Notes: generated from the letters alone by a model not told the origin. A stretch of 59,051 nt of DNA from an uncultured Elusimicrobia bacterium (GCA_964405835.1 CAYOPN010000007.1:1-59051), one strand, 5' to 3'. Positions 26,083 to 46,300 are shown, counted from the stretch's first letter. Program-made: numbers and translations.

Positions 26083-27015
26083 ATGAATCCCAGCCTATTA
26101 GACTCCATCACATCAAAAAAATCTCAACTGGACAGGTTGCGTCCATTTCCCAAGGCGGTCCTCGGACGGCTTCATCAGCAAATTGTGGTGGAATGGACAT
26201 TTAACTCCAACGCCATTGAAGGAAACACGTTAACCCTGAAAGAAACGGCACTCATTTTGCAAGAAGGACTGACTATTTCAGGGAAACCTCTCCGAGAGCA
26301 TTTCGAAACCATTAATCATAAAGATGCCATCCAATTTCTTGAAAACGTAATTCAAGAAAGACAGCCTCTTGATGAAAACTTTGTTTTTGCATTACACAAA
26401 CTGATCCTAAAGGGGATCGCGGATTCGGAGTCGGGGGTTTACCGTCGTCATGCGGTCCGGATTCTGGGGGCTGTTCACATCCCGCCAAACCCGTTAAAAG
26501 TGCCGGCTCTTATGGGTGAATTTTTCCGGGAGTATCGGCGGGAGCGTAAAAAGATGCATCCGGTTAAGCTGGCGGCATGGCTTCACCATAGGTTTGTTGC
26601 CATTCATCCTTTTATTGATGGCAATGGGCGAACAGCGCGTTTGTTGATGAATTTTGTCCTCATGCAGAGCGGATATCCTCCGGCCGTCATTTTGAAAGTG
26701 GACCGGAGAAAATATTACCGCGTCCTTAAAGAAGCAGATGCAGGAAAGCAAGAAGCCTATGTTGATTTCATTGGCCGGTCTGTGGAGAGATCGCTGGTTA
26801 TTTATATACAGGCGCTGACGCCCAGTTCAAGAAATCAGGAAAAACAGGGATATATTTCCTTGGCGGAAGCGGCAGAACATTCGCCTTATTCCCAGGAATA
26901 TTTAAGTCTGCTGGCGCGACGAGGAATTTTGCCGGCGGTTAAATTCGGGAGAAATTGGATGACAACGCTGGATGCTGTCAAAGAGTACGTGGAAGCCCAG
27001 AATAAAGGTGGCTAG
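26083..27015 (+). CDS. Fic (Fido) family protein with C-terminal HTH
   Basis: SNAIEGN inhibitory motif, HPFIDGNGRTAR catalytic motif, and C-terminal ISLAEAAE..YSQEYLSLLARRG excisionase-like HTH. Confidence 0.93.
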   Translation: MNPSLLDSITSKKSQLDRLRPFPKAVLGRLHQQIVVEWTFNSNAIEGNTLTLKETALILQEGLTISGKPLREHFETINHKDAIQFLENVIQERQPLDENFVFALHKLILKGIADSESGVYRRHAVRILGAVHIPPNPLKVPALMGEFFREYRRERKKMHPVKLAAWLHHRFVAIHPFIDGNGRTARLLMNFVLMQSGYPPAVILKVDRRKYYRVLKEADAGKQEAYVDFIGRSVERSLVIYIQALTPSSRNQEKQGYISLAEAAEHSPYSQEYLSLLARRGILPAVKFGRNWMTTLDAVKEYVEAQNKGG

Positions 27016-28082
27016 AAGGTTTCTGTTTTTGATTTTTTGAGGCGGGAGAGCGGTACGCGGACCAGCGAGACCGGATTTTCTGTCACAATCCACATCTTCC
27101 TTCCAACGATCGTGAAGCCCGTCGGTGTTGCTCCGTTCAAGAACGGGTCCAGATCAAACGAGCCCAATTCCAAAAGCGGCTTTTGCAACCGGTAGACGTT
27201 TACAAGACGGGCCTTTCCGTCCAGGACCCATAGCCGGTTGTTAAAGAACCCAAAGGCCGTGGCCATGATCTCCGGCAACGGGAACGTGTCCCGGATTTCC
27301 TCGATGTCGTTTCCGCGGTGCCGGTAAAGCCGTCTCGCATCCTGGTCCGCCGACCACAAATCCAATCCATCGTAAAAAAGCCCCGCTGGTTTCTGTCCTT
27401 GCGTGTCGACCGATTCCGTCACTTGATGATCGGCTGTGGTGGCGTGAAGATTTATTTTTAGATCGAGACCGTCCAGGGTCCAGATGGTTTTGTCCGATAT
27501 CGCAATGCCGGTCGCCAGACTGCCGGGCAAGGGTTCGACCGAAACAATGGGAAGCCCTTTGGCGTTGCGGTGCACAAACAGCGTTTTGCGGAACCAGTCG
27601 GCGATGTAAATATTTTCTTTCCATACCACCGGGCCCAACGTGTGCGTGTAGGGAAGCGTGTCCACTTGAATTGCGAGCGCGTTGTAAAAGAATCCAAGGC
27701 CGGACAACACAACCACGGCCGCTGCCCACGGCACCCATTTTTTCCATGGGAAATTTCTGGCCTTGTTCCACGCCAACGGGGTCCGCTCCGGCTCAAAATT
27801 GAAACGCGGAAAAAGTTCTTCGTGCGAGCGGGGTTTCTGCGGAATGTCTTTGATGGTGGAGGAACGGGCGTTCATGAACTCTTCCATGATGCGGTTGATT
27901 TTGTCTTCGTAGTGGACTTTGGCGGACTTCCACTCGCTCTCAAGTTTCTTCTGGTAGTTGTCGATGTCGCCGACCAGTTCCGCGGCCGCGGGGGGGAGAT
28001 TGTCAGGAAAAATAGCGTCCAGTTTCGGCGCATCTTTGCCCAAATTGGGTCTATTTTCCGGCTCTTTTTCAGGCTGGGCCAT
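27012..28082 (-). CDS. Single-pass membrane protein with C-terminal beta-propeller-like repeats
   Basis: N-terminal coiled coil, TM WAAAVVVLSGLGFFY, then repeats such as GPVVWKENIYIAD, GIAISDKTIWTLD and GLFYDGLDLWSAD. Confidence 0.75.
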   Translation of the reverse strand: MAQPEKEPENRPNLGKDAPKLDAIFPDNLPPAAAELVGDIDNYQKKLESEWKSAKVHYEDKINRIMEEFMNARSSTIKDIPQKPRSHEELFPRFNFEPERTPLAWNKARNFPWKKWVPWAAAVVVLSGLGFFYNALAIQVDTLPYTHTLGPVVWKENIYIADWFRKTLFVHRNAKGLPIVSVEPLPGSLATGIAISDKTIWTLDGLDLKINLHATTADHQVTESVDTQGQKPAGLFYDGLDLWSADQDARRLYRHRGNDIEEIRDTFPLPEIMATAFGFFNNRLWVLDGKARLVNVYRLQKPLLELGSFDLDPFLNGATPTGFTIVGRKMWIVTENPVSLVRVPLSRLKKSKTETF

Positions 28083-28154: not shown

Positions 28155-30362
28155 TTAGCGCTCCAGCCGGCGGCGGATACGGCTGAGTTCCTTGTTGATC
28201 CTGTCGGCCCCTTGTTCGCCGTAGCGGCGCAGCATGTCTTTCAAGAGCTCGAGTTTCTCATGGTCCGAAATATCGCGTGCCGACACGCTCTCGTAGTAAA
28301 TCCAAGCGCGTTGCAGGTCCGCATTCGCGGGGATCCGGAACCCGCTGGCGGTTGGGGCCGATTCCACCACCGGTTTAGTAACAGGCTTGGTTTCAACAAC
28401 AGCCGGCTTGTCCGCCGGTTGGTTGGCGGGCTTCGGTGCGACGGGGGCCGGTTTCACCACTGGCTCGATCGCCGGTTTCGTGGGCTGCTTGTTGATGAGA
28501 TCAAGCAGTTCGCGGTCGATAAGCGACATGTCGATGCCACTTGCACCGTAAACCGCTTTCATCTGGTTCAATAGACCTATTAATTCATCCACCGGAGCGG
28601 CCGCCGATTTGCGCACCATGTAATAACCGAGCGCGGTGCCAAATGCGCGCAGCGTTTCATCCGATTTCTGCATCGTGGCTTGTTCGGGCGTTACAGCCGG
28701 TGTTTCCTGTTGCAGTTTCGGCGCGACCAACGTTTGCGGCGCTTCTTGTGTTTCTTCGGGAGCGCGCAACGGGTCGGTTTCGGGCTTGCTGAAGCTTTCC
28801 GATATCTTCGCGCGGCGCGCGAGCAGCGTGCGGTACGCGCGCAACACCACTTCGTCCGCGGGCATGATTTCGACGAGGCGCCGCATCGCGTCGAGGCAGA
28901 TATCAAGCTCATCACTGCGGTAAGATTTCGCGGCGATTTCGGTCAACGCGATCGCCATCAGGGAACTGACACGGTCGCTTTTCTGGACCGAGATCGGCAA
29001 CAGAGACAGGCGAACGAGCGCAGATTTTGCGTCGTTTCTCACCAGCGCTTCGATCGCTTCGATTGCGCCGGTTTTGTCCTCTTCAGGAATACCGCGCAAG
29101 AGCGCGAAACGCAACTGCGGCCACTGCAACCCATCGGTCGAATATTTCTGTAACAAGTCGCGCAGGTCGCTGCTCACGTCTTGCAAGCCCGCGTCATCGA
29201 GCGGGTATTTGCGGATCAAGAGCAGCATCAGTTGGTTTTTGTAATCGGGCGTATAGTTCCGGCCCACGCTCAACCGCGTCAAAACCATGTGCGTCGCCAG
29301 ACTGCTGTACTTAAAGGCGGCCAGCAAGTCGGCGTTCGAATAATCCTTGGTCAGTTGCAGGTTGCCGGAGCCCATCTTGAACGAGAAGCCCATGCGGTGC
29401 GAGCCGGTGGTATCGGCGAAGTTTCCGACCGGGAAGTTGAACGCGTAATCCAAACGGAAACGTGAATAGAGATAGGACAAGCCCATCGTCAGCGCTTTGT
29501 AGCCGCGCGATCCGCTCGCGTAACCGCCGCGCGCAATAAGCGCGCCCAAGGAGCCAAACGGAATGTTGCGTTCCGCACCCAACGCGAGATCGTTGTCTTT
29601 TTGACCGACCAGGCGTTCGGTCTGCCGCATTTCCGCTGTCAACGTGCCCCAACGCGGACGATAACCAAGTCCGGCCTTCATGGACATGGGCGCTTTGTCG
29701 CCGTCACCGGCGAGCGACACATCCGGTTCGTTGAGATTGATCAGCGCCAAGCCGGCCGTGTATTGATATTTCGCGCCAAACTGCACGAGTCCGCCCAAGT
29801 CAATCGCGTACGTGTCTTTGGCGTTCCCCGAATTGAACAGTTGATCGCGCTGGTTGGAGCCAACGCCCGCATCATTCAACGCGTTCTCGGTGAACCGGTC
29901 CGGCTCATATTGGCGGTGCAGTTGTTTCAAGTTCGCGCCAAAGGACGAGATTCCGCGCAGGCCGTACGGTTCGAGATCGAGGCGCTGGCCGTAGCTCAAC
30001 GTCAATGTGCGCTCGTTGAACAAATTATCGGCCTTGAAGTTGTGATAGGCGAACCCGAGGGTGCGATAACCCGGCACCAGCGGATGCGCGTAGCCGAGAT
30101 ACGTCGTACCAAGGCTCGATCCATCATCGAGCCCTTTCACCAATTGTCCGTATTGGCTCGTGATCTGGCCTTCTTGCAATTGGATCAAACCGGCCGGGTT
30201 GTACACGATCGAATCCGCGTCGTCGGCCACCGCCGTGAACGCGTCCGCCATGCCCGGAGCGCGCGCTCCGGCGTCCTGGCTTTCGAACGACGCGAACGCC
30301 ACTGGCGCCGGCAACTGCACCAGCAGCAACAGAGATAATAGGAGCGCGAGTAGCTTCTTCAT
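28155..30362 (-). CDS. Outer-membrane beta-barrel (PorV/PorP-SprF-like) fused to a helical C-terminal region
   Basis: Signal peptide, GARAPGMADAFTAVADD..IVYNPAGL, alternating beta strands ending RLDYAF..GSHRMGFSF, then ~400 aa helical/Pro-rich tail. Confidence 0.8.
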   Translation of the reverse strand: MKKLLALLLSLLLLVQLPAPVAFASFESQDAGARAPGMADAFTAVADDADSIVYNPAGLIQLQEGQITSQYGQLVKGLDDGSSLGTTYLGYAHPLVPGYRTLGFAYHNFKADNLFNERTLTLSYGQRLDLEPYGLRGISSFGANLKQLHRQYEPDRFTENALNDAGVGSNQRDQLFNSGNAKDTYAIDLGGLVQFGAKYQYTAGLALINLNEPDVSLAGDGDKAPMSMKAGLGYRPRWGTLTAEMRQTERLVGQKDNDLALGAERNIPFGSLGALIARGGYASGSRGYKALTMGLSYLYSRFRLDYAFNFPVGNFADTTGSHRMGFSFKMGSGNLQLTKDYSNADLLAAFKYSSLATHMVLTRLSVGRNYTPDYKNQLMLLLIRKYPLDDAGLQDVSSDLRDLLQKYSTDGLQWPQLRFALLRGIPEEDKTGAIEAIEALVRNDAKSALVRLSLLPISVQKSDRVSSLMAIALTEIAAKSYRSDELDICLDAMRRLVEIMPADEVVLRAYRTLLARRAKISESFSKPETDPLRAPEETQEAPQTLVAPKLQQETPAVTPEQATMQKSDETLRAFGTALGYYMVRKSAAAPVDELIGLLNQMKAVYGASGIDMSLIDRELLDLINKQPTKPAIEPVVKPAPVAPKPANQPADKPAVVETKPVTKPVVESAPTASGFRIPANADLQRAWIYYESVSARDISDHEKLELLKDMLRRYGEQGADRINKELSRIRRRLER

Positions 30363-32482
30363 CTCGCCACCCCCACGGTCCCCGTGAAGGAACGACCTTC
30401 GCCCGAAAGTTTGTAGATGTAGGCCCCGCCGGGGACCACATTCCCGCGGTCGTCTTTACCGTCCCAAATGAGTGTTGTGCCGATGCCGGCGTTTGCTTCC
30501 GGCGGTGGCAGTGTCCGGACATGGCGTCCATCGCGGTCGAAGATCTCGCCCGTGACCGCCACGTTGTTCGGGTTTTCCAGAACAAAGTACACGCGATCGT
30601 TGAGTCCATCGCCGTTCGGCGAGAAAAGCCGTGGATACACGTTGCCGGCACTGAGGCTTAATGTCGACGGATTGGCCGACGCGCGCAGTTGATAATTGCC
30701 GAGGAACGAGGAACGTGTGCGCACATTTGTTCCGACGCGGTCGAGCGTTCCGCCGATGCGGACCCAGGTGACGCCGTTAAACCAATACATGGACAGTTGG
30801 TCCGGCGTGATGTTGTTGAGCGGCGGAGCGCCGGCGATGCCAGGGGCACCGGCGAGCACCTGTCCGTTGTTCTCGTTGTATCCGATCGCCACCGTTGCCT
30901 GCGGTTTCGCGAACGCGAGATCGTTCAGTACCTCGCCGTTGTCGACGCGGACGAGTTTAAGGCGGACGTTGCGGATAATGCCACCGTCGCCGCTGTACGG
31001 TTCTTCGCTGAGCCGGATCGTGAGCGGAACGCCGTATTTGTTGTAGGCCGAACGCAACAAATCGTTGACCGTCTGCGGCATCTGCACATGCGAGACACCG
31101 TCCGTGCTCAGATAAATGACGTTGGCTTCGGGGCTCGAATCGGCGATCAGCGAATGTTCGGACTGGTTCCCGCCGGTATCGATGGCGCGGATCGTGTAGA
31201 AATAGGTGACGCCGCTGACATTGTCGGCGAACGCGGTTGTGGTCAGCGGGACCGGTGTAACGAGGACGCCCGTGCCCGTCAATGTGTCGCGACGGTAGAT
31301 GTAGTAACCGCCGAGGTCGGTGATGGTGGAACCGTCGACGTTGTAACGGACCGGTTCCCACGTGAGGGTGAACGCGTTACCGGTCGGGTCGAGGAAGCCT
31401 TTGAGGCCTGCGGGCGCCGCCGGCATTTGGACATCGCCCAGGTTTGACGTGAACGCCGTGACGGTGGAGCTTGGCGTCGTGAAGACGCCGTCGCCGTTGA
31501 TCGCGCGGACGCGGTAATAATAGGTGGTGAGTTGCGCCAGGCCCGTGTCGTTGTAAACGGTCACGGTCATGGTTGCTACCGGCACATAGACGATGCCGTT
31601 GTTCGAACGTTCGAGCCGGTATTGTGTCCCCGCCGGGTTTCCGTTGGAAGTCCACGACAGGTCGACCGTGGTCAGGCCGACATCCGTGACCGCCAGATTC
31701 GCCGGCACTTGGGCCAGTGTGTAGACGGTGACCGGCGCCGTCGGTAGCGATGTTCCGGACAGGTTCGATGCTCTTAAGCGCCGCGTGATCGCTTCGTTCG
31801 GCGTGAACACGCCATCGATAAGCGAGAAGCCGTTCGTATTGCCGACCGGTACGTCGGCAGGGAACGAGTACAGGATGTAGTTGGTGGCGCCGGCCGTGAT
31901 GTCCCACGACCATTGGATGCTGAATGTCGACAGCGCCATTCCTTGGAAGTTGGTCGGTGCTGAGCCAAGAGACGACGTAACGAATGCATGGGCTTGTTGT
32001 CCGATTGCGCTCGTGTTCGTGTCGATCGGGGAAACAAAACCCCTATCGTCTACGCTCATGATGGCGGCGTAATACGTGACGCCGCCCGGTAAACCGTTCA
32101 ACAACAGGAACTCGTTTACTCCCGGTGTTCCGGGGACCGGTTCGTTGGGAACGTCCTGCGCAGAATTCCACCACGTGGTCGTGCTTCCCACGCTGTCCGC
32201 GGAATACGTCGCAATGCGGACCACGTAAGAGGTGGCCGGGTTTTTGTCCGCGAAGAGATTGTTGTTCTCATCGGGCGCGCTCCATTCGAGGAGCATTTGG
32301 TTGGCGCCGCCGGGGATGGCCTGCAAGTTGGTAATGGCCGCCGGTGGCGTGGTATCGAGTGGACGAATAACGATCGTCAACGAATCGGAAACGGCCGCGA
32401 GGGCGTGCGGAGGCGTCGCCAGGGCAAAGAGGCTCCCGGCGATGACCAAACCTGTTTTGGCCATCTTGCGCGCGAGTTTCAT
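30359..32482 (-). CDS. Secreted FN3-repeat protein with gliding-motility/T9SS type-B-like CTD; putative fibre anchor
   Basis: Signal peptide to ALA|AVSDSLTIVIRP, about four FN3-like domains, VYPRLFSPNGDGLND...WDGKD..G..Y.Y C-terminus. Start at 32482 preferred (32464 or 32554 possible). Confidence 0.85.
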   Translation of the reverse strand: MKLARKMAKTGLVIAGSLFALATPPHALAAVSDSLTIVIRPLDTTPPAAITNLQAIPGGANQMLLEWSAPDENNNLFADKNPATSYVVRIATYSADSVGSTTTWWNSAQDVPNEPVPGTPGVNEFLLLNGLPGGVTYYAAIMSVDDRGFVSPIDTNTSAIGQQAHAFVTSSLGSAPTNFQGMALSTFSIQWSWDITAGATNYILYSFPADVPVGNTNGFSLIDGVFTPNEAITRRLRASNLSGTSLPTAPVTVYTLAQVPANLAVTDVGLTTVDLSWTSNGNPAGTQYRLERSNNGIVYVPVATMTVTVYNDTGLAQLTTYYYRVRAINGDGVFTTPSSTVTAFTSNLGDVQMPAAPAGLKGFLDPTGNAFTLTWEPVRYNVDGSTITDLGGYYIYRRDTLTGTGVLVTPVPLTTTAFADNVSGVTYFYTIRAIDTGGNQSEHSLIADSSPEANVIYLSTDGVSHVQMPQTVNDLLRSAYNKYGVPLTIRLSEEPYSGDGGIIRNVRLKLVRVDNGEVLNDLAFAKPQATVAIGYNENNGQVLAGAPGIAGAPPLNNITPDQLSMYWFNGVTWVRIGGTLDRVGTNVRTRSSFLGNYQLRASANPSTLSLSAGNVYPRLFSPNGDGLNDRVYFVLENPNNVAVTGEIFDRDGRHVRTLPPPEANAGIGTTLIWDGKDDRGNVVPGGAYIYKLSGEGRSFTGTVGVAR

Positions 32483-32603
32483 CCGGTCTGAAATCGACCG
32501 AACGAACTCAGTGATGTCCGCCACTATGTGTTTCATGTTGCAGTGACAGAGCACTCCTGTCGTTTCGACATTCGTCTCCTCTGACGCGATGCGCTACGCC
32601 CAT

Positions 32604-32717: not shown

Positions 32718-33362
32718 TTAGTTCGGCTGTACTGCCGTGAGCAGGATGTGGACGTTCTGCGCGTTGGTCGTTGTGGTCACCGACGGCAGACGGAAACGCA
32801 GCCACAGAAGCGAGGTCGCGGCCGCAGCAGGGCTTGGCGCGAGAGCGTCCATGTCTTTGAATCCGTGTTCACCGGAAGCGGCCTCGAAGTGACCGGTCAC
32901 GCCACCCTGGGTACCGACGTAGCGATTGGTTGTTGAAATGACATCGCTGTCGTTTTGTCCGGGTTGAGTGCCGCTGAAGTAACCGCCAGATTGCGCTGGG
33001 GCCGTGGTGTGCGCGATGGTGGTGAACACACCCCAGGCTTGCAGCGCGTCGCCTTCGTTCGACGATGTGTCGGCGTCAAACGTCCATGGCGTTCCGGCCG
33101 AGGAGATAAACCCCTGTAGACGGAGGTCCGTCGTCGCGTAGGTGGAGTCGATGGTGACCGTCGACGGTTGCACGGTTTGCGTGGAGGCCGCCAGATCCAC
33201 CGTTCCGAGATCCAACACGACGTTTGCTGTGTCGATGTCGACCGAATAGAACGCGTTCGGTGTGATCGTGACCGTCAATGAGTCGGTGACGGCCGCCTGT
33301 GCGACATGTGAGAGCCCGAACCCGAAGGCCAAGGCCAGTGCGACTTTTATTGCACGTTTCAT
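32718..33362 (-). CDS. Secreted 214-aa putative fibre subunit, paralog 1
   Basis: GGGGAG RBS; signal AQA|AVTDSLTVTITP; beta-rich; C-terminal LWLRFRLP..NAQN..LTAVQPN. Confidence 0.85.
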   Translation of the reverse strand: MKRAIKVALALAFGFGLSHVAQAAVTDSLTVTITPNAFYSVDIDTANVVLDLGTVDLAASTQTVQPSTVTIDSTYATTDLRLQGFISSAGTPWTFDADTSSNEGDALQAWGVFTTIAHTTAPAQSGGYFSGTQPGQNDSDVISTTNRYVGTQGGVTGHFEAASGEHGFKDMDALAPSPAAAATSLLWLRFRLPSVTTTTNAQNVHILLTAVQPN

Positions 33363-33616: not shown

Positions 33617-34261
33617 TTAACTCGGTGCTACCGCCGTCAGAACGATCATGATGTTCTGCGGATTTGTTGTGGTCGTGTTGCTCGGCAGACGGAAACGCAG
33701 CCAGAGAAGCGAAGTCGCGAGCGGGTCTGGGCTCGGGGCCAACGCGTCCATGTCTTTGAATCCGTGCTCACCGGAAGCCGCTTCGAACTGATTGGTCACG
33801 CCGCCTTGGGTGCCGACATAGCGGTTCGTGTTGCTGATCACGTCGCTGTTGTTGACGCCGGGTTGTGTGCCGCTGAAGTAGCCGCCGGATTGTGCCGGGG
33901 CTGTGGTGTGGGCGATGGTGGTGAACACGCCCCAGGCCTGCAGCGAGTCCAGTTCGTTCGACGTTGTGTCGGCATCAAACGTCCAGTCGGTGCCGGCGGA
34001 GTCGATGAACCCTTGCAGTTGCAGGTCTGTGGTCGCGAACGACGACAGTACGGTGACCGTCGAGGGCTGCACGGTGGCAGTTGATGCCGCGAGGTCCACC
34101 ACGCCCAAGTCGAGCGCTACGTTGGCCGTGTCAATGTCGACCGAGTAGTAGCCGTTCGGCGTGATCGTGACCGTCAATGAGTCTGTGACGGCCGCCTGTG
34201 CGACATGTGCGAGCCCGAGCGTAAACGCCAGGGCCATTGAGGCTCTGATTAACTTCTTCAT
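33617..34261 (-). CDS. Secreted 214-aa putative fibre subunit, paralog 2
   Basis: AAGGAG RBS; same length and motifs as paralog 1. Confidence 0.88.
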   Translation of the reverse strand: MKKLIRASMALAFTLGLAHVAQAAVTDSLTVTITPNGYYSVDIDTANVALDLGVVDLAASTATVQPSTVTVLSSFATTDLQLQGFIDSAGTDWTFDADTTSNELDSLQAWGVFTTIAHTTAPAQSGGYFSGTQPGVNNSDVISNTNRYVGTQGGVTNQFEAASGEHGFKDMDALAPSPDPLATSLLWLRFRLPSNTTTTNPQNIMIVLTAVAPS

Positions 34262-35579
34262 TTTGTTTCTCCTTTTTTCGTTAGTGACTCCTACTCATGA
34301 TTTCGCTGTGCTCCTTAGCTCGGTTGAACCGCCGTCAGAATGATGCTGATGTTCTGCGGGTTGGTTGTGGTCGTGTTGCTCGGCAGACGGAAACGCAGCC
34401 ACAGAAGCGAGGTCGCGGCCGCAGCGGGACTCGGCGCGAGAGCGTCCATGTCTTTGAATCCGTGCTCACCGGAAGCGGCTTCGAACTGATTGGTCACGCC
34501 GCCTTGGGTGCCGACGTAGCGATTGGTCGTGGAGATGAGATCGCTGTCGTTGACGCCGGGTTGCGTGCCGCTGAAGTAGCCGCCGGATTGTGCGGGGGCC
34601 GTGGTGTGCGCGATGGTGGTGAACACGCCCCAGGCCTGCAACGCGTCCAGTTCGTTCGACGAGGTGTCGGCGTCAAACGTCCAGTCGGTGCCCGCTGAGT
34701 CGATGGTGCCCTGCAGACGCAGGTCGGTCGTTGCGTAGGACGACAGGATGGTGACCGTCGACGGCTGCACGGTTTGCGTGGAGGCCGCGAGGTCGACCAC
34801 ACCCAAGTCGAGCGCAACGTTGGTGGTGTCGATGTCAACCGAATAGAACGCATTCGGCGTGATCGTGACCGTCAATGAGTCTGTGACGGCCGCCTGTGCG
34901 ACATGTGCGAGCCCGAGCGTAAACGCCAGGGCCATTGAGGCTCTGATTAACTTCTTCATTTTGTTTCTCCTTTTTTCGTTAGTGACTCCTACTCATGATT
35001 TCGCTGTGCTCCTTAGCTCGGTTGAACCGCCGTCAGAATGATGCTGATGTTCTGCGGGTTGGTTGTGGTCGTGTTGCTCGGCAGACGGAAACGCAGCCAC
35101 AGAAGCGAGGTCGCGGCCGCAGCGGGACTCGGCGCGAGAGCGTCCATGTCTTTGAATCCGTGCTCACCGGAAGCGGCTTCGAACTGATTGGTCACGCCGC
35201 CTTGGGTGCCGACGTAGCGATTGGTCGTGGAGATGAGATCGCTGTCGTTGACGCCGGGTTGCGTGCCGCTGAAGTAGCCGCCGGATTGTGCGGGGGCCGT
35301 GGTGTGCGCGATGGTGGTGAACACGCCCCAGGCCTGCAACGCGTCCAGTTCGTTCGACGAGGTGTCGGCGTCAAACGTCCAGTCGGTGCCCGCTGAGTCG
35401 ATGGTGCCCTGCAGACGCAGGTCGGTCGTTGCGTAGGACGACAGGATGGTGACCGTCGACGGCTGCACGGTTTGCGTGGAGGCCGCGAGGTCGACCACAC
35501 CCAAGTCGAGCGCAACGTTGGTGGTGTCGATGTCAACCGAATAGAACGCATTCGGCGTGATCGTGACCGTCAATGAGTC
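34155..35579. repeat. Tandem duplication with 698-bp period
   Basis: 34155-34881 matches 34853-35579 with no difference seen by eye; the ORF-track translations of the two copies are identical. Confidence 0.9.
34315..34959 (-). CDS. Secreted 214-aa putative fibre subunit, paralog 3 (chimera of 2 and 4)
   Basis: Signal peptide and upstream region identical to paralog 2; mature part identical to paralog 4. Confidence 0.88.
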   Translation of the reverse strand: MKKLIRASMALAFTLGLAHVAQAAVTDSLTVTITPNAFYSVDIDTTNVALDLGVVDLAASTQTVQPSTVTILSSYATTDLRLQGTIDSAGTDWTFDADTSSNELDALQAWGVFTTIAHTTAPAQSGGYFSGTQPGVNDSDLISTTNRYVGTQGGVTNQFEAASGEHGFKDMDALAPSPAAAATSLLWLRFRLPSNTTTTNPQNISIILTAVQPS

Positions 35580-35657
35580 GGTGACGGCCGCTTGTGCGAC
35601 ATGTGCGAGCCCGAGCCCGAAGGCCAAGGCCAGTGCTACTTTGAGGATGCGTTTCAT
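35013..35657 (-). CDS. Secreted 214-aa putative fibre subunit, paralog 4
   Basis: AAGGAG RBS before ATG 35657 (an upstream in-frame ATG at 35738 also has an SD). Confidence 0.88.
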   Translation of the reverse strand: MKRILKVALALAFGLGLAHVAQAAVTDSLTVTITPNAFYSVDIDTTNVALDLGVVDLAASTQTVQPSTVTILSSYATTDLRLQGTIDSAGTDWTFDADTSSNELDALQAWGVFTTIAHTTAPAQSGGYFSGTQPGVNDSDLISTTNRYVGTQGGVTNQFEAASGEHGFKDMDALAPSPAAAATSLLWLRFRLPSNTTTTNPQNISIILTAVQPS

Positions 35658-35742: not shown

Positions 35743-36663
35743 TCACTCCTTTACTTCGATATAGATGCGCACGGGGGCATCCAGCCAAAACCCGGTTTGA
35801 AGCCCGGACTTGACCAACCCCGCGAATTTTTTTCCTGCGTATTTCGGGTCATTTGGTATCTCAATGACCATCGGAATCATTTTGATTTCCTCTCCCGCCA
35901 CGTTCGCTTCGGGTTTTGGAAATTTGATCCATGCCGGATCGGGAATGGGTTCGTAGCCGGGCGGAAGAAAAAGTTTCGAATCCCAGGCCACGCTCTCCAA
36001 TTTGATCGCCAGCTCGTCGCTTGAAAAATTCGCGACGCGAATGGATTTGGATTGCTCTTTTTTCACGTCAAACTTTTTCCCAAGCGGGACTTGGATGACG
36101 TAAAGGGCCTGTGGCGAGATATCGAAGTCGAGCTTCGACATCGCCTTTTGGCGTTTTTCTTCCTTGAGGCTTTCCGGTCCCGGCCCGATGGAAAACCGCA
36201 ATTTGTTTTCCACCGCCACACCAAGAAGTCCCGTGCCGGTCGTGCGGGCTTTGATGATGGCCATGAAATGCCGGCCGTTCAGCGACGGGTCGTTTGGAAT
36301 GGTGAGCAACAGGTCAAAGAAACCTTGGGAAGCCGGCCCGATCTTGATGGTGTTGGGGAACGATTTCACCCAGCTCGGATCGGGGATCGCCTCGTACGGT
36401 TCTTTGAGAAGCGTTTTCTCCGGCTGCGCGATGTCCACAACCACTTCGACGTCCGTGGTGCCGCGGTTTTCTACTCCGAACGGAATGCGCAGCGTTTCGC
36501 GCAAGTTGTACGTGCGGCCGATCTGCGCGTTTTCAACGATCACGTCGCCGAACCGGGCGGCAAGCCCGATTTTGGCCCAGCTCACTTGCGGGCACAGATG
36601 AATCAGCGCCAGCAGCAGGCCGAAGCCTTTTTTAACCCTCTCACACCATGTTCTGTTTTTCAC
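35743..36663 (-). CDS. Secreted two-domain protein, putative periplasmic pilus chaperone
   Basis: AGGAGG RBS, signal peptide, and an internal duplication (YE[AP]IPDP[SA]W[VI]K...IPNDP...G..F). Confidence 0.75.
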   Translation of the reverse strand: MKNRTWCERVKKGFGLLLALIHLCPQVSWAKIGLAARFGDVIVENAQIGRTYNLRETLRIPFGVENRGTTDVEVVVDIAQPEKTLLKEPYEAIPDPSWVKSFPNTIKIGPASQGFFDLLLTIPNDPSLNGRHFMAIIKARTTGTGLLGVAVENKLRFSIGPGPESLKEEKRQKAMSKLDFDISPQALYVIQVPLGKKFDVKKEQSKSIRVANFSSDELAIKLESVAWDSKLFLPPGYEPIPDPAWIKFPKPEANVAGEEIKMIPMVIEIPNDPKYAGKKFAGLVKSGLQTGFWLDAPVRIYIEVKE

Positions 36664-36679: not shown

Positions 36680-37321
36680 TCAATCCGGCGCCACCGCCGT
36701 GATTGTTATTGAGATGTTTTGCGCCGCCGAAGATGTCGTGGCGTTCGGCAGGCGGAAATAGAGCCACAGATGGGATTTCGCCGCTGCGTTTGGTTCCGGC
36801 GCCATCCCGTCCATGTTTTTCGAATCGAATCCACTGTTGTTTTCGAAAAGGTTTGAAGTGCTGAAGCTCGCGCTATCACCGACGTAGCGGTTGGTGGTGG
36901 AGACCATGTCGCTGCCGGCCGCGCCGGGCACGGTGCCGCTGAAGTAGTCGGCGGTTTGTGTGGGGGCGCTTGAGCGCTCAATCGATGTGAAGGTGGCCCA
37001 CACGGCGAGTCCGTCGGTCTCGATGGTGGTGGAGTCGGTGTCAAACGACCACGGTGTTCCGCCCGAGGAAATAGCTCCCTGCACTCGGAGATCGGTGGTG
37101 GCGAATGTGCTTTGGATGCTGACGGTGGACGGGTGCACGGTTTGCGTGCTCGCGCCAAGGTCCACCGTGCCGAGATTGAGAGTCACGTTGGCGGTGTCGA
37201 TATCGACCGCGTAATACGCGTTCGGAAGAATGGAGATCGTGAGAGAGTCCGTGCTCGCGCCCCACGCGGTCCATGGCGCGATCAACAAAAACCCCAAGAT
37301 GAATTTCTTTAGCGCGCGCAT
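36680..37321 (-). CDS. Divergent subunit paralog, putative minor/adaptor pilin
   Basis: WG|ASTDSLTISILP, YAVDIDTANV.LNLGTVDL, LWLYFRLP..AAQNISITITAVAPD; TAATG coupling to the giant gene. Confidence 0.88.
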   Translation of the reverse strand: MRALKKFILGFLLIAPWTAWGASTDSLTISILPNAYYAVDIDTANVTLNLGTVDLGASTQTVHPSTVSIQSTFATTDLRVQGAISSGGTPWSFDTDSTTIETDGLAVWATFTSIERSSAPTQTADYFSGTVPGAAGSDMVSTTNRYVGDSASFSTSNLFENNSGFDSKNMDGMAPEPNAAAKSHLWLYFRLPNATTSSAAQNISITITAVAPD

Positions 37322-40300
37322 TAGTCGGGCACCGTCGCTTTTCCGGTGATCCGGATTTCTTGCGCGTTGCCGGTCGTCGTGAGACCGGGCATTCCCAATT
37401 TGAACCAGATTGTGCGCGTGGCGCCGACCGGCAGGTCAACGCAGTTGCTGCCGGAATTGCTGATGACGGTGGACGTGCAGCGGGTGAACGCGTCGGAGAG
37501 TTTGTCTTCGACGCCGAAATCGGTGGCGTTCGGTTCGGTGGCATTGATGATCGACCACAACACAAAACGGTCGGTGGCCGTGGTTGCGGCGATCTGCCAT
37601 GGGCTTCCAGGTGTCGCGGTCGTGGCCGCGAATTCAAAGGTGGCCGGTACGTTCCCGTTGTTGGTGACGGTGATGCCGGTAGAAATGACGAGTGTTGTGT
37701 TGAGATTGATTGGCGTCGGCAGCGACAACGTATTGGTCGAGAGCGTGATACTGAGGTTTGTCGGCTGAGCGTAAGTGGTGGCGCCGTTCGAAATGCTGGA
37801 TGTGTTGTTGTTGATGTCCGTTGTCCACAAACGGAAGTAATAGGTGCCGCCGCTGATCAGGCCGGTAATGGTCCGGCCTTGTCCTGACCCTGCCGTAATG
37901 TTTGTCGTGGCAATATTCAGGCGATAGACATGCGCGGGTTGCGCGGCGGTTGGGCTCCAAGAATTTCCTTCCGCGAAAATGGTGTCGGTCGTGTATTGGA
38001 TTGTGAAGGTGGAATTGATGAGCGTCCCGAACGACCCGTCTTCACCGGGGGACGTCCAGGTCAAATCAATCGCGGCGCCAAACGTGCTGCGGAACGCGCT
38101 GAAGTTGTTGACCGCCGATGGCGAGCCGAAGTCCCAACGCGTGTTGTTCCCAAGGTCGACGCTGAGCGGTTGGGTTTGCATGAGCGCGCCAGCAGACGCG
38201 TTTGAATCTCTGACAGATACGTTGATTAGCGTTTGGCTGGAACCCGCGTAACGGAAATGCCATGGGTCGTCATCGGAGATTGAGCGAAGCGTGTTGTCGC
38301 GAAATTCGACTGCGTGAGTGACGTGCTGGGTCGTGCCGGGCGTGAAATAAATTGTCGTGTTCGAAGTGATTGCGCGCAATGCGTAGAAAGTTGTCGAACC
38401 CGCCAGCGTCTGGGTTTCAGCGCCGTTAAAGGTGACGGTGCCGGAGTTGGCGTTAAACAATCCGCTGTTGCTCCAGTTTCCGCCAACAGAAATGAGCTGG
38501 TTGGAGCTGGCGTTGAGCGTGGCGTTCGCCCCGATGGTCAGATCCCCAAGGACATTGAACGTGGCCGCCGGCAAATTGTGTGTGGCGGAAGCGGCCGGGA
38601 CCAAATCAAGATGGCCGAATGTTTGGCCGGCAATGTTCTGCGTGTTTGTTTGCAGATAGCGAACACGGCTGAGCGGGTCGAACGTGAAAGTCCCGAACAC
38701 GGTCGGGAAGGCCGAGGTGCCCGACATCTCGAACGTGGCGTCGTCCATAACGTGGAACGACTTCCCGGCGTTGCCCGCGATCGCGAAGCCGCCGTTTTTA
38801 AATGTGCCCGAGGCCACCACCACGTTGCCGGTGACATTTGTTCCGGTAATCGCGGCGGACAGCGTAGCACCCGATCCGGATATGTTGCTTATGTGAAGAT
38901 TTTCATAACTGCCGGCCGGGAAAAATTGGACAGTCTGTCCCGACGAACTATCGGCGTAGTTAAACACACTTCCCGCGGTGCCGGTGAGCAGCCTGGCATT
39001 TGAAATGCTCAGCGCGCCTTTCAAATTAATCCGTCCGGCGCCGCCGGACATGTTGATGATTTTTGTGTCGTTGGCCGAGGCGGCGAACGTCATGCCGCCG
39101 TAAGCGTTCAAAGTTCCGTTGTCGATGACGATGCGTGAAACACGCGAGGTGGTCGCGCTCGCGCCAGCAAAATTAATAAGTCCATTAACGGTGGCCGAGG
39201 CGTCGCCGATATTCCACGAATTGTTGCGGCTGGGCGTGGTCGGTTGGTTGAACACGACATTTCCATTCACAATCAATACATTGGTGCTGGAATGCGTGAG
39301 CGCGCTGCTGATCGCGCCCGGTGCCGCGAAAATAATTCCGCCGACCGTGGCATCCACGTTCACGGTGACGGTGATGGTGGAGTTGATGGTGATGATGTCG
39401 GTCGCGGAGGGGAACCCACCAAGGCCCGTGCAATTGGTCCAAATGCTGGCGTTGCTCCAGTTGCCGGTCGTGGTCGCGTTACACGTGGTGGGAGTGCGCG
39501 TGTTGGTGCTTCCCAACAGGAACCAGGCCGAGTCGATGTCCGAATGGTTGATCGCTTTGACTTGGCCGTAATAAACGGTGGCGGTCTCGAGCGACTCGAC
39601 CACGGCGTTTAAACCAAAAGTCGAAATGAAGATATCGTCAAAACCGTCAAATCCCGTGCTTGTTGAAATTTGGAGCATGTAACGGGTGACGCTGGCCGGG
39701 TTTCCGTTCTGTGCCCAGTTCACCGTGAACGACGTGAGGTTGACCGCGGTCCAGGTGGAAGCGACCGTGACCGGACGGTTGGCGAGCGTCGCGGTCGCAA
39801 TTCCGGTCGTCCACGCGCTGGTCGCGATCCCCACGATGGCGTTGGCGCGGCCGTAATACGTGGTGTTGACCGAAAGCGTGGCGGGCAAGGTCGCAAACAA
39901 GTTGGCCGTGATCGAACTCACGAGGCTCCCACTGAAATCCGAAGCGGTGCTGACTTGCATCGTGTACGACGTTCCTGCCGGGACGGGTTGGCTCCAGGAA
40001 GCGGAGAGCGTGTTCGTTGCGGCCGAAGTAAAGAAGAAATTGTTCGGCATGTTCGGCGCGAGCGTCGTGGTGCTGCCATTGGTGAGCCACGATGTCGGGA
40101 TATTGCTGTGGCTAATGGCGCGCACGCGCGCAAAGTAAGCGCGGAACGGAAGCAGCGATTCGAATAGCACGGCCGTGTCCGTTGTGTCGGAACTGTGAAC
40201 GGTGCCGGACAAGAAATTGCTCACCGTGGAAAGTTGGACCGTGTACAGCGTGCTCGACGGATTTGAATTGCTCAACCAGTTCACTGTTAGCGACGTGACA

Positions 40301-43300
40301 TTGACGGCCGTCCAGGTGGAGGCGGCCGTAAGTGGAATGTTTGCCAGTGTCGGTGTGGTGACGTAGGCCGAATACGGATAAGGAATTCCGCCAACAGTGG
40401 CGCTGACCTGGCCGTAATACGTGGTGTTCGGAATAAGCGGGACCATGGTCGTGGCGAACAAGTTGCCGGTGGTGGAACTGACAATGGTGCCGCCGAAATC
40501 GGAATCCGTGCTGACGCGCAATGTGTAGGTGTCTCCCGGAGGCGCGGAAGCCTGCCACGTTGCGGAGAGGGCGGTGGTCGCCGCCGATGAGAACGCGAGA
40601 TTTTTTGGAATGGCCGAAACAATTGTGTGTGTGCTGCCGAGAGTCTGCCAATCGCTGGGAATTCCCGAATGGTTGATGGCCCGCACGCGCGCGTAGTAGA
40701 CGGTCCCGCTCTCGAGCTGATCAAAAATATTGTCGAGGCTGTTCGTCTCCGCGTTAAGCAGAGTTCCGGAGAGGAAATCGCTGACCGTGGTGAGCTGCAC
40801 CGCGTATTGCGTGACCGCGGCCGGGTTGCCGTTGCCGAGCCAGTTGACCGTGAGCGAAGTGATATTGACCGCCGTCCATGTGGAAGCGGCGCTGGCCGGT
40901 TGGTTGGCAAGTGTCGCGGTCGTGACCGACGCCGACCACGGGCTTGAACTGCCATTGATGATCGCGTTAACCCGCCCGTAATATGTTGTGTTGACCGACA
41001 ACGACGCGCTTGTGGTCGCTATCAATAGCGTCGTATTGGAACTCGTGATTGTTCCAGAGAAATTCGACGCCGTGGAAACTTGGAACGTGTAGCTGTCCCC
41101 GGTTGGCGCGGAAGCGGTCCATCCGCCGGTGAGCCGGTTGGTGGCGGCGCTTGAAATAAAGAGTCCGGTGGGAGCGTTGACCGGCAGAGTGGCGGTGCTG
41201 CCCAAATTGACAAACGCGGTTGGAACGCCCGAATGGTTTACCGCGGCGACACGTCCAAAATAAATTGAATCAGGAATAAGCGAAGAGAATGTCGAATTCA
41301 GGTTGTTGGTGGTGGAACTCAAAGTCGTCCCTGAAAGGAAATCCGGCACCGTGGAAAGTTGCACGCGGAACCACGTGGCTGGGAATGGATTGTTGTTGCC
41401 AAGCCATGTCACCGTGATCGATGTGGTGTTGACCGCGGTCCAGGTCGATGCAGCGGACAATGGAATTTCCGCCAGCGTTGCGGTAGACACCGTCGTGGGG
41501 GCGCTATCGAGGCCCTCGATGGTGGCTATGACCCGCGCGTAATACGTTGTGTTGATCTTTAATCCAGCCGTTGTGTCGCTGGTCAGCGCGTTAAGAGCGG
41601 ACGTGAGCGGCGCCGAGAATCCGGAGTTCGTGCTGACAAAGAGCGTGTATGTGTCGGGCAGCGGCGTGGCCGCCGACCACGAATAGCCTATGGAATCCAA
41701 TGCCACGTTTATCGCTTGGAGCGTCGGCGGCGGGTTGGACCCGAACACCCAGTTAACGTTGTTGCCGCTGTCCACTCCTCCGGGGTAATTAACGATGCGC
41801 CGTCCGCCGGAAGCGTTCGAGTCCCGGACGTCGGCATACGACACGTTGTAAGAGGTGGTGTTATTGAGGAACCACGCGTTGCCGGTGACGATGGAACGCA
41901 ATACCACGGGAGCGCCCGACGTCCCTGTGATGGTGAACGTGGAAACCGTGAAGGTCGATCCTGCCGCGAAATAGACCGTGGCTGCGGGGCTGAGTCCGTT
42001 TGTGTTCACCAACAACCGCGCCGCCGAAAAACTCGAGGAGAAAACCAATCCGCCCGCGCTGGTATTGGAGGAGAGCACGTTCGCAAATGGTTTTCCGTAA
42101 TTGTTTACGTATTGCGCCGATATTCCTTGGAATGAAATGGTGCTGTTGTTGTGCGTGAACACACCGTTGTTTCTCCAATCGCCTCTCACCACCAATGGGT
42201 TGGAAGCGTGCGCCGTGAATGTCGCATTGGGGTTGATCGTGACCGCGCTGCTCACCGTGAGGACCGTGTTATTGGTATTGGCGGTAACTGTGGTCGCGTT
42301 GGTGCCATCTCCGATTGTTAGATCACCCTGGATAGTATTGGCGCCCGCAAGAAACGTCCGCGTGGCCGTGGCCGACGGCATGAGATCAAGATGTCCATAG
42401 GATTGGACCGTTATGTTGAGCGCCGCGCTCGATTGCAAATAGCGGGTTCGGCTGGTCGGACCGAACGTGAATGTGCCGAACGTGGTGGGGAACGCAGAAG
42501 TCCCCGACATTTCAAAGGTCGCGCCGTCTGCGACTTGGAACGTGTCGCCGGCGCCGCCGACGATGGCAAGCCCGCCGTTCTTTAATGTTCCCGATTGCAC
42601 GCGCAAGTTGCCGGCCACATTGGTGGCAGATATCGCAGCACCCAGCGTTGCTCCGGAAACCGACGTGTTGTTCACGTGCAGGTTGTTGTATCCGCCGGCC
42701 GGGAAGGTGCTGATCGTCTGGGCGGCCGAATCGTCGTTGTAATTGAAAATACTACCGACCCCTGCTGTTAACGTGGCGGAGGGGTTCGGGACCGTGAGAG
42801 CGCCTTTCAAATTCAATTGCGCGGTGGAGCCCGACAACACAATAATTTTGTTGGTGTTGATGGTGTTGGCGGCAAAAGTAATTCCTCCCAGCGCGTTCAA
42901 TTGTCCGCTGGTGACCGTAATGCTGGAGATGCGCGTGCCTACGGGTGCGCCCGGGAAGGAAATGAGTCCCGTCACGGTGGCGGTTCCGTTATTGATGTTC
43001 CAGCCGCTGGTCCGGTTGGCCGTAGTCGCTGCACTTAAAGTCACGTTTCCATTCACCGTCAATGTAACGGTGCTCAAATGCGTCAGCGAGTTATTTGTTC
43101 CGGGAGAAGCCAAGATAATTCCCCCGACCGTGGCATCCACGTTTGCGATCACGTTGACACCAGAGTTGATGGTAATGATATCGGTCGCCGAGGGCACTCC
43201 GCCGGGCCCCGTGCAATTCAGCCAGTTTGCGCCGACTGTCCAACTCCATGTCCCAACCGTGTTGGCATTACAGGTTACGGGTGTTTGGGTGTTCGTACTA

Positions 43301-46300
43301 CCCAGCAAAAACCACTCTGTGGAAATCTCGGAATGGTTGACTGCTTTTACTCTGGCGTGGTACGTGGTGGCAGTGTTCAGATTTAGGAAATTGGTGGTGA
43401 CCGTCTGTGTAGTTATTTCAATATCGTCTTCTCCGTCAAAGGTCGAGGCAGTGGACATTTGGACTGTGTACCAAGTGATCGTCGGGTTTGAGTTGCTTAA
43501 CCAGGAAACCGTAATGGAAGTCAGATTAACCGCGGTCCATGTGGACGCCGCGGAAGCGGGAATGTTCGCGAGCGTGACGGTTGATGCATTGGACGACCAA
43601 GAGCTTGATACGCCATTGATGACGGATTTAACGCGCGCGAAATAGGTCGTGTTGGGGATGAGCGTCCCAAACGGGACCGCATATAAATTGACGGTATCAG
43701 AACTGGTCAACGTGCCAGTGAAATCGGAAGCGGTACTGGTTTCGAGTGTGTAGGTATCGGCGGCCGGTGAAGGCGGCGACCACGCGGCCGTGAAGGAGGA
43801 AATATTTACTACGTTGAAATCGAGACCTGTCGGCACATTTACTTCAAAGACCCAGTTCACGTTATTCCCGAGATCCACGCTTCCAGGAAGCGCGAGGATG
43901 CGGCGGCCGGCAAACGCGTGGGAATCTTTCACCTGCGCGTACACGACCGCGTGTGTGCTCGTGTTGTTGATGTGCCACGGCGTGCCGTCGACATTCGATT
44001 TCAACACGGCCGGGTAGAGCGCCGATCCGGTAATCGAGAACGAAGAAACGGTAACGGTCGAACCCGCATTGAAATACATGGTCGCCGCGGAGCCGAGGCC
44101 AACCGTGTTCACAAACAACCGCGCGGCGGAGAAACTGGAATTGAAGATGAGTCCGCCGGCGCTGGCGTTGGAGGAAGTGACATGACCGAAACCTTGGCCG
44201 GCGTGTTGGACCGACTGCGCGCTCGCGCCAGCGAAGACGACCGTGCTGTTGTTATGAACAAACGAACCGAGGTTCGTCCAATTTCCACGGACGGTCAACA
44301 CGCCTGTCGCGTTGGCCCCAACCGTGGTGACGTTGGTCCCATCTCCAATGGACAGATCACCCTCGATTGTAATCTCTCCCGCCGGGAAGTTTTGCGTGGC
44401 GGTGCCGGCTGGCATCAGGTCGAGATGTCCGTAGGTTTGCGTCGTTAGCGTGAGCGGCGTGCTGGTTTGCAAATAACGCACGCGGCTGGTCGGGCCAAAC
44501 GTGAAAGTGTCGAACGTGGTGGGGAACGTGGAGGTGCCCGACATTTCAAACGTCGCTCCGTTGGAGACCTCGAATGTCCGGCCGGCGTTGCCGACAATTC
44601 CAAATCCGCCGTTCTTGAATGTTCCTGACTGTACGCGCAGATGGCCGGTCACATTGGCCGCGGTCACCGCCGCGCCGAGCGTCGCGCCGGAAGCGGATGT
44701 GTTATTCAAATACAGATTGTGATAAGCCCCTTCCGTAAAGAAGCGAACGGTTTGAGCCGAAGTATCATCGGCATAATTGAAAATGCTGCCCGAACCACCG
44801 GCGTTTAACGTACTGGAGTTGGCTGGCAGCGTCATATTGCCTTTCATGTTTAATTGGCCCGCGCCGCCAGACATGTTGATCACTTTTGCCGGCGCGGTGG
44901 AAGACGCGAAAGTAAATCCGTTGAACGCGTTCAATTCTCCTGATGTGATGTTGATCTGGGACACCCGCGTGGTTGTGTCGTTGGTCCCGGCAAACATGAT
45001 CAACCCGCCCACCGTGGCGGTGCTGGCGTTCAAGTTCCATGCCGTGGTGCGATTATCAAGCAGGGGTTGATGCATGGTGACAGGACCGTTCACAGTTAAT
45101 GTGACCGTGCTTAACTGTGTGAGCGAGTTGTTGGCGTTTGAGGCTGCGAACACAATTCCGGCCACCGTGGCGTCTACGTTAACGATCACGCTGATGCCGG
45201 AGTTGATGGTGATGAGGTCCGTTGTCGCTGGGAACCCTCCCGGTCCCGTGCAATTCACCCATGTCCCGGCCGTGTCCCAATTTCCGGAGACCGCGGCGTT
45301 GCAGGTCGTGGGGGAAGTTGTTTTGGTGCTGCCGACCGTCAAATAGGAGGAGTTCAATTCGCCGTGGTTGACCGCTTTGATACGCGCGAAATAGGTGGAG
45401 CCGAGGAAGAGGTCCTCAAAGGTTGCGCTTAGGTTGTACGTGGAGGAGCTATAAAACTCTTCGGTTAAGAAGTCGCTGGCGGTGGCGAGGTCGACGACGT
45501 ACCGGGTGATGCCGGTTGGGTTGCCGTTCGCGAGCCAGTTGACGGTGAAGGACGTGTAATTGACGAAGGTCCATGTGGAAGCTGCGGATGCCGGAATATT
45601 TGCCAGCGTGGCGGTGGCGAGTTCCGTTGACCAAGCACTGGCGATGCCCGCATTAATCGAATTCACACGACCGTAGTAAGTGGTGTTCGCTGTCAACGGC
45701 GCGGTCGAAGTGGCGAACAAATTCAGTGTGGACGAACTGATGACGGTGCCGTTGAATAGAGAGTCGGTACTGACTTGGAACGTGTAGCTGTTTCCGGGCG
45801 GGACCGGAGCGTCCCATGCGGTCGTTAGCGTATGAGTGGAAGAAGCGGTGAACCGGAAATTGGACGGCGTGGACGGCGCTTGTGTCACGGTGCTTCCCAA
45901 CAAGAACCATGCGGTGTCGATATTCGAATGGTTAACCGCTTTAACGCGGGCGTAATAGGTTTCACCGTGACTCATGGATTGGATCGTGGCCTGCAGATTG
46001 TAGGTGGACGAACTGAAAGTTACACCCGCATTGAACGCGGACACGGTCGAGAGTTCAAGCACGTACCTTGTCTGCGGCGATGGGTTTCCGTTGCCCAGCC
46101 ACGCGACCGTTACCGATGTGAAATTCACCGCGGTCCAGGTGGAAGCGGCGGTGACCGGAGCTCTGGCGAGCGTTGCCGTTGAGAGTGTTGAAGACCAATC
46201 GCTGAGAAGGCCGGAAACAATGGAATTGATGCGCGCGTGATAGGTGGTGTTCACCAACAAGAATGACGTGGTCGCGCTCGTGAGTCCCGTCGACGTGGTG

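Follow-up and report, generated by a model that had tools for sequence, protein, structure and literature searches.

The DNA described here, referred to as the window, is a stretch of 59,051 nt from an uncultured Elusimicrobia bacterium (GCA_964405835.1 CAYOPN010000007.1:1-59051). It carries one long minus-strand operon which specifies, in gene order, an adhesin, a minor subunit, a 306-aa protein, four major subunits, a protein composed of fibronectin type III (FN3) domains and a C-terminal domain (CTD), and an outer-membrane barrel. The last but one of these, the FN3-CTD protein, is the subject of this report. With a probability of about 70% we regard it as the donor-only base cap and anchor of a donor-strand fibre that has no usher. 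This reading is carried by the division of strand and body among the operon's products, the conservation and co-variation of the strand, its position outside the FN3 fold, its docking in a structure prediction, and the pairing of CTD and barrel genes.

Gene and domain organization

The features of the FN3-CTD gene are as follows:
30359-32536, minus strand: FN3-CTD protein gene, from the open reading frame (ORF) list; stop codon 30359-30361
32396-32482, minus strand: Sec signal peptide MKLARKMAKTGLVIAGSLFALATPPHALA with an A-L-A cleavage site, read from the sequence
32360-32395, minus strand: putative donor strand AVSDSLTIVIRP, the mature N-terminus, from motif, hidden Markov model (HMM), AlphaFold2 (AF2) and co-variation
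31127-32347, minus strand: four tandem FN3 domains forming the stalk (Pfam fn3, E-value=1e-14; AF2 predicted local distance difference test (pLDDT) score ~90; Foldseek)
30617-31120, minus strand: beta-sandwich without family assignment, residues 473-640 (AF2 secondary structure, pLDDT 73-90)
30362-30616, minus strand: CTD of the CHU_C / FlgD_ig type, resembling type B domains of type IX secretion systems (T9SS) and holding the motif FSPNGDGLND (Pfam)

The gene specifies 725 amino acids from the ATG at 32536, or 707 from the ATG at 32482 at which the earlier note on this DNA had placed its start; orthologues with which its length was compared (46-76% identity) have 693-728 residues. Close orthologues keep the N-terminal extension MKHIVADITEFVRSISDR..., and 32536 is probably the true start, with an unusually long n-region ahead of the signal peptide. 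In the AF2 model this extension (window 32483-32536) lies inside a long helix. The signal peptide itself is a helix of low pLDDT and aligns to signal-peptide positions 3-23 of the subunit HMM described below. The strand had previously been given as 32360-32398; it is retained with its end corrected to 32395, the longer version taking in the Ala at -1. Four residues, LDTT, separate it from PPAAITNL, a typical start of an FN3 A-strand.

The description of the remainder as FN3 domains and an FSPNGDGLND-containing CTD, with no subunit body, agrees with the Pfam matches to fn3 and to CHU_C/FlgD_ig and with a subunit-HMM match confined to the strand region. No Pfam families besides fn3 and the CTD families were found in the protein. 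The CTD (residues 641-719) scores 30.7 bits with CHU_C and 27.6 bits with FlgD_ig, the cut-off being 27 for both, and 24.5 bits with NCBIfam TIGR04131 (type B sorting domain), under the cut-off of 35. A Foldseek search with the full model returned tandem FN3 structures with E-values down to 1e-21, which swamped the list, leaving nothing on domain 473-640 or the CTD. This beta-sandwich has no Pfam match and, by hhalign, no similarity to the subunit body.

The other genes of the operon are:
37321-51606, minus strand: 4761-aa FN3-rich adhesin (ORF list)
37336-37764, minus strand: C-terminal domain of the adhesin, a subunit body without the donor strand and hence putatively acceptor-only (subunit HMM positions 36-200, E-value=4e-26)
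36680-37321, minus strand: minor (adaptor) subunit with strand ASTDSLTISILP (subunit HMM positions 5-201, E-value=5e-61)
35743-36663, minus strand: secreted 306-aa protein with two similar halves (co-occurrence with the FN3-CTD gene)
35013-35657, minus strand: major subunit paralog 4 (ORF list, subunit HMM)
34315-34959, minus strand: major subunit paralog 3 (ORF list, subunit HMM)
33617-34261, minus strand: major subunit paralog 2 (ORF list, subunit HMM)
32718-33362, minus strand: major subunit paralog 1, consisting of signal peptide, AVTDSLTVTITP and body (subunit HMM positions 1-201, E-value ~1e-73)
28155-30362, minus strand: outer-membrane barrel of 735 aa resembling the PorV/PorQ family (NCBIfam PorV_fam, below cut-off)

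The start of the minor subunit gene overlaps the 3' end of the giant adhesin gene. In the four major paralogs AVTDSLTVTITP comes after A-Q-A, and in the minor subunit ASTDSLTISILP comes after W-G. The subunit family, with 95 homologues (Elusimicrobia where named), has no Pfam, NCBIfam or PDB sequence match. No operon protein matches an usher or a PapD-family chaperone in Pfam or NCBIfam. The 306-aa protein, a candidate periplasmic assembly chaperone, has no sequence relative in Pfam, NCBIfam or PDB and no sequence link to PapD.

Distribution of strand and body

The likeness of the strand to the N-termini of the subunits, from which the earlier note had started, was recovered alike by motif match, HMM and hhalign. 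The whole 2.35-Mb genome yields 19,203 six-frame ORFs, and in these the motif [ST]DSL[TS][IVLF].[IVLF] occurs six times, in the five subunits and in the FN3-CTD protein, directly after the signal peptide in each. Because it is found nowhere else in the genome, the likeness is more than chance.

An iterated HMM of the subunit family comprises a signal peptide (positions 1-23), the strand (24-35) and the body (36-201). Free subunits match it from position 1 to 201. In the large adhesins the C-termini match at positions 36-200 only, beginning just past the strand; this holds for the window adhesin and for the body-only matches in the adhesins of related loci L001, L003, L009, L011, L016 and L038. 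FN3-CTD proteins match at positions 3-35 only, and nothing in them corresponds to 36-201. When the family profiles of subunits and FN3-CTD proteins were compared using hhalign, a single 20-column stretch was aligned (probability 82.5%, E-value=9.8e-6), which consists of the end of the signal peptide and the strand and ends exactly at the Pro of the latter.

On these alignments the three kinds of protein appear to be a socket only (adhesin), plug and socket (subunits) and a plug only (FN3-CTD protein). Such a split points to the arrangement of a donor-strand fibre, in which a body devoid of its own strand would need one supplied in trans.

Conservation and co-variation of the strand

Approximately 45 full-length orthologues of the FN3-CTD protein were collected, with identities of 33-76%. 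In all of those having an N-terminus a beta-type strand is conserved, placed after the signal peptide and ahead of the first FN3 domain. Both subunit and FN3-CTD genes are available in 16 loci, and in these the two strands vary together. Lineage-specific pairs include ADIPSDSFTLTVTP with ADVPSDSFTLLVRP, VFVSSDSLTITITP with VYVSSDSLTVTMRP, SVSIDIKVSINAS with SSQVGVFVHIVNAP, and SDDVALSVTV with SDEVALSVRA. Over the 16 loci the mean strand score was 33.4 for cognate and 22.9 for non-cognate pairs; the cognate value was reached by none of 100,000 shuffles.

In the window the strand of the FN3-CTD protein and that of the subunits use different synonymous codons at 5/8 shared residues, and the signal peptides preceding them are unrelated. 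Since the codons and signal peptides differ in this way, the likeness points to selection at the level of the protein and speaks against recent gene conversion as its source.

Wherever a locus has a strand-bearing FN3-CTD protein and 3 kb or more of sequence upstream of its gene (15/15), subunit genes and the 300-aa gene were present there, upstream of the FN3-CTD gene. No subunit genes lie upstream of FN3-CTD paralogs whose N-terminus is of another kind. Five such paralogs outside fibre operons and without the donor strand (L019:9416-11830, L021:2568-4883, L024:8858-11197, L029:9284-11848 and L041:3965-6214) share another, conserved N-terminal module of ~60 aa, KLTG...SGGG...SGLM...AQPG.ITA.

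The residue before the strand's Pro is Thr in 70/78 subunits, and Arg or Lys in 12/18 FN3-CTD orthologues with a DSLT-type strand. In the window the Arg codon of AVSDSLTIVIRP is at 32366-32368; among the orthologues compared (P0096-P0145) the inward-facing L/V/I positions are kept. The Arg or Lys may act as a lock or as a discriminating residue.

Structure predictions

The full-length FN3-CTD protein of the window was modelled with AF2 using an alignment of 38 sequences. The strand (residues 48-59) is coil with a pLDDT of 41-54, and from residue 72, where the first FN3 strand sets in, the pLDDT is ~89 or higher. The fold starts 13 residues past the strand and comprises four FN3 domains, the beta-sandwich at 473-640 and the CTD. 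The objection that the strand might be integral to the first FN3 domain is thereby ruled out by the model.

The modelling of the strand with a strand-deleted subunit, proposed earlier as a check, was carried out on an orthologous pair, that of locus L005, where the last subunit gene and the FN3-CTD gene share a frame; the window's own pair lies in different frames. The read-through chain consisted of a strand-deleted body, three stops, a stretch of ~100 residues made up of junk and the FN3-CTD signal peptide, and the FN3-CTD strand. AF2 gave a pLDDT of 93-97 for the body and of <50 for the linker, and SDALTVTIRPM was returned as an 11-residue beta-strand beside the body with a pLDDT of ~89, the alignment contributing no information for this segment. 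Since a lone peptide cannot score as a beta-strand by DSSP, the FN3-CTD strand of L005 is predicted to pair with the subunit body. Foldseek with the complemented subunit model found no close solved relative, and no fold family could be assigned from it.

The C-terminal domain, the barrel and export

The genes of type B CTD proteins in Bacteroidota stand immediately upstream of the gene for a cognate PorP/SprF-like barrel, to which the proteins bind for anchorage at the surface (PMC9143113, PMC12618676). In the window the FN3-CTD stop codon and the ATG of the barrel gene run together as ATGA (a 4-nt overlap), as they do in L001, L002 and L003, and a barrel gene lies directly downstream in ~36/43 related loci. 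The barrel (residues ~30-330, followed by a tail of ~400 aa) matches NCBIfam PorV_fam with an E-value of 1.8e-12 and 47.5 bits, below the cut-off of 90, and has no match to Pfam PorP_SprF. In L001 (12154-14390) a small ORF called on its own contains the final 57 residues of the barrel tail, the cause being either a frameshift or a genuine split.

The genome contains 22 ORFs with the same CHU_C/FlgD_ig-type CTD, the FN3-CTD protein among them, and no fewer than 12 PorV-family genes that exceed the cut-off. A PorV-family gene follows directly, on the same strand, after 9/22 of the CTD ORFs, including that of a giant of 14,811 aa. Such an arrangement suggests a genome-wide pairing of cargo and barrel outside Bacteroidota. 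Examples in this genome (G000) are C1:59076-104744, C3:12994-15643, C4:15523-22417, C5:1535-3978, C13:1821-7060, C50:5320-7748 and C6:37985-40716.

Adhesin and subunits bear Sec signals without a CTD, the FN3-CTD protein being the only operon protein with one. As adhesin and subunits have none, the FN3-CTD protein would supply the CTD in trans. The proposal that it tethers the fibre draws support from its CTD and from the translationally coupled PorV-like barrel gene.

The SprA model gave three weak stretches within a stop-to-stop frame of 1924 aa (protein ~1830 aa), with 51 bits against a cut-off of 200. The product (G000 C2:3548-9319, minus strand) ends in ...TLTIQF, and upstream of it lie a PorV/TraF_2-like barrel and a TPR lipoprotein. 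It matches no Pfam family and so has no confirmation from Pfam; homologues are present in 258/301 Elusimicrobiota genomes, so that its presence does not discriminate for the fibre. It is possibly a phylum-wide SprA-like translocon. Searches of the genome, which is 87% complete, found no T9SS core (PorK/L/M/N, PorU): for the PorU sortase there were CTD-like matches only, and the GldM search, which gave no match, is uninformative, the control genomes having been silent too.

Proposed mechanism

We infer that the subunits form a fibre at all and, by analogy with the Bacteroidota pairs, that the CTD would bind to the barrel and hold the FN3-CTD protein, and with it the fibre, in place; the route across the outer membrane and a role at the end or the start of assembly are put forward on the same footing. 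Each ~190-aa subunit would be a beta-sandwich whose N-terminal strand, AVTDSLTVTITP, fills the groove of its neighbour. The terminal body of the 4761-aa adhesin would only accept a strand and, because it has none of its own, would stand at the tip. After cleavage the FN3-CTD protein would present only AVSDSLTIVIRP, on a short linker ahead of the stalk of FN3 domains and beta-sandwich, and would offer no groove. Its strand would enter the groove left open in the cell-proximal subunit, after which that end could take no further addition. The CHU_C/FlgD_ig-type CTD would bind the PorV/PorQ-like barrel specified by the overlapping downstream gene, and this binding would fasten the chain of adhesin and shaft to the cell, making good in trans the CTD which the adhesin does not have. 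The earlier note had the protein terminating growth. In terms of topology this stands, since a protein without a groove cannot be extended; as to the order of assembly, the sequence suits a terminator or a nucleator.

A number of observations weigh against the view of the FN3-CTD protein as base cap and anchor. The evidence is in silico throughout, and the organism is uncultured. The docked pair is that of an orthologue, the L005 subunit being ~55% identical to that of the window, and the docking was read from pLDDT and secondary structure only, without a scrambled-strand control and without sight of groove position or orientation. The complemented subunit model finds only weak beta-sandwich matches in Foldseek, the best being TTHA1873 (E-value=3e-4), and the donor-strand pilins EcpA, CupB6, TasA, PsaA and CsuA/B are matched with E-values of 0.01-0.07. 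In the distant loci L003, L026, L030, L038 and L040 the best match is not the cognate strand. CTD and barrel score at or under the curated cut-offs, and the likeness of the barrel is to PorV/PorQ and not to PorP/SprF. Finally, the operon specifies no usher, and there is no evident outer-membrane route for the subunits and adhesin, which lack a CTD.

The same architecture could also work with the opposite timing. The FN3-CTD protein, held on its barrel, would nucleate the fibre by donating its strand to the first subunit, whose own strand would be freed for the next, and growth would proceed outward until the acceptor-only adhesin capped the free strand. This order is possible, though we hold it to be clearly less probable than a base cap. 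TapA behaves in this manner, donating its N-terminus to TasA and initiating filaments while membrane-associated and without a free groove (PMC10151520); the operon has no usher to impose growth from the base, and the logic of half-sites suits either order. In a diderm, however, this would require each subunit to pass the outer membrane on its own beforehand, for which no recognizable signal is present in the subunits. Moreover, the operon opens with the adhesin gene, and the minor subunit gene is coupled to it in translation, as is typical of tip-first chaperone-usher assembly. A different role is that of export carrier, in which a chain joined strand to groove in the periplasm is taken, by piggyback secretion on its single T9SS-like CTD, through the SprA-like translocon to the PorV-like barrel. 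If true, such an usher-independent diderm pilus pathway would couple donor-strand assembly to type-IX-like secretion outside Bacteroidota. The restriction of the CTD to one protein of an operon in which the others have Sec signals only, the lack of an usher, the presence in the genome of both the 1830-aa outer-membrane protein with weak SprA matches and numerous PorV-family barrels, and the fact that other giants of this genome (14,811 and 9,124 aa) carry a CTD of their own would all fit. Both the carrier role and the pathway built upon it nevertheless seem unlikely to us. The SprA-like match is far below its cut-off and unconfirmed by Pfam, the protein is too widespread to be specific to the fibre, GldM (with the silent controls noted above) and the PorU sortase were not found, and we know of no precedent for T9SS export of a preassembled multi-protein chain.

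It is also conceivable, at rather long odds, that the shared dodecamer serves as a tag by which a common partner recognizes its bearers, whether this is a processing enzyme, a sorting step or the 306-aa protein, and that the FN3-CTD protein is a separate surface protein on the same handling route. Co-variation would equally be expected if both strands bound the same chaperone, and the 306-aa protein is present in every locus. A tag does not explain, however, why adhesin bodies lack exactly this strand, why the strand docks on a strand-deleted body, or why it is lacking in FN3-CTD paralogs outside fibre operons. Least probable by a wide margin is a remnant of recombination, a chance likeness, or a strand belonging to the protein's own fold: the codon differences and unrelated signal peptides, the restriction of the motif within the genome and the low-pLDDT coil all argue otherwise, as does the retention of the strand in ~40 orthologues down to 33% identity.

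Comparison with known systems

Donor-strand fibres include chaperone-usher pili, TasA and several archaeal filaments; at their ends stands either a complete pilin, as with PapH, or a folded protein of unrelated kind, as with TapA. In P pili, PapH gives its N-terminal extension to the last major subunit and, not being extendable itself, ends and roots the fibre, while the tip adhesin has a strand-less pilin domain, the same logic as in the window adhesin. PapH is a full pilin with a groove closed to strand exchange and requires the PapD chaperone and the PapC usher. Set against this textbook PapH, the FN3-CTD protein is predicted to share the donor-strand extension (HMM positions 24-35 and the AF2 docking of the orthologue). 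It differs in having no pilin body, according to HMM, hhalign and AF2, and no usher or PapD in its gene cluster. The analogy with PapH drawn earlier is therefore apt for function and fails for the pilin body, which PapH keeps; TapA is closer. In the type V pili of Bacteroidia a dedicated basal subunit (Mfa2 / FimB) halts polymerization and holds the pilus on the outer membrane. These pili, unlike the present system, use C-terminal strand exchange after proteolytic maturation and are anchored by a lipoprotein with a pilin fold.

The closest analogue, in a functional sense only, appears to be TapA (YqxM) of the Bacillus subtilis TasA fibre, a low-abundance, envelope-associated accessory protein encoded beside the major subunit (PMC10151520). 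Like the putative cap it donates an N-terminal strand by donor-strand complementation and cannot accept one (PMC10151520). The two have no sequence relation; TapA has a complete V-set immunoglobulin domain, acts in a monoderm, which has no outer membrane, and is proposed for initiation only, whereas the FN3-CTD protein is marked by an FN3 stalk, a T9SS-like CTD and an outer-membrane barrel dedicated to it.

The CHU_C-type CTD with a barrel gene directly downstream recalls the type B CTD proteins and their PorP/SprF-like barrels (SprB-SprF, PG1035-PorP) as well as PorZ-PorQ and PorU-PorV. The window system differs from the T9SS of Bacteroidota in its phylum, Elusimicrobiota, in a PorV/PorQ-like barrel that scores below cut-off and bears a 400-aa tail, and in having only a weak SprA-like protein. 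To our knowledge no T9SS substrate has been linked to a donor-strand fibre, and literature searches combining Elusimicrobia with donor strand, and donor strand with type IX secretion, turned up no account of a system of this kind.

At a minimum, the principle suggested here is that of a 12-residue plug on a stalk, mirrored by an adhesin that is socket only, the half-site carried defining the end of the fibre. It would link two systems thought to be separate, donor-strand assembly and the CTD-and-barrel anchoring of type IX secretion, in a phylum about which little is known. Confirmation of it would account for the mounting of 0.5-MDa adhesins that have no anchoring domain of their own, and would provide a simple plug-and-socket pair, testable and possibly reusable in vitro.

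Occurrence of the subunit family and neighbouring gene

The subunit family was found in 28/301 sampled Elusimicrobiota genomes, representing 20/97 genera. Downstream of the barrel gene in the window, a 356-aa protein without a family match is specified at 27012-28082 (minus strand), and its gene is conserved at this position in 13 related loci. The number of shaft-subunit copies varies widely among lineages; in another Elusimicrobiota genome (G092 C13:102280-107599) there are seven tandem subunit genes.

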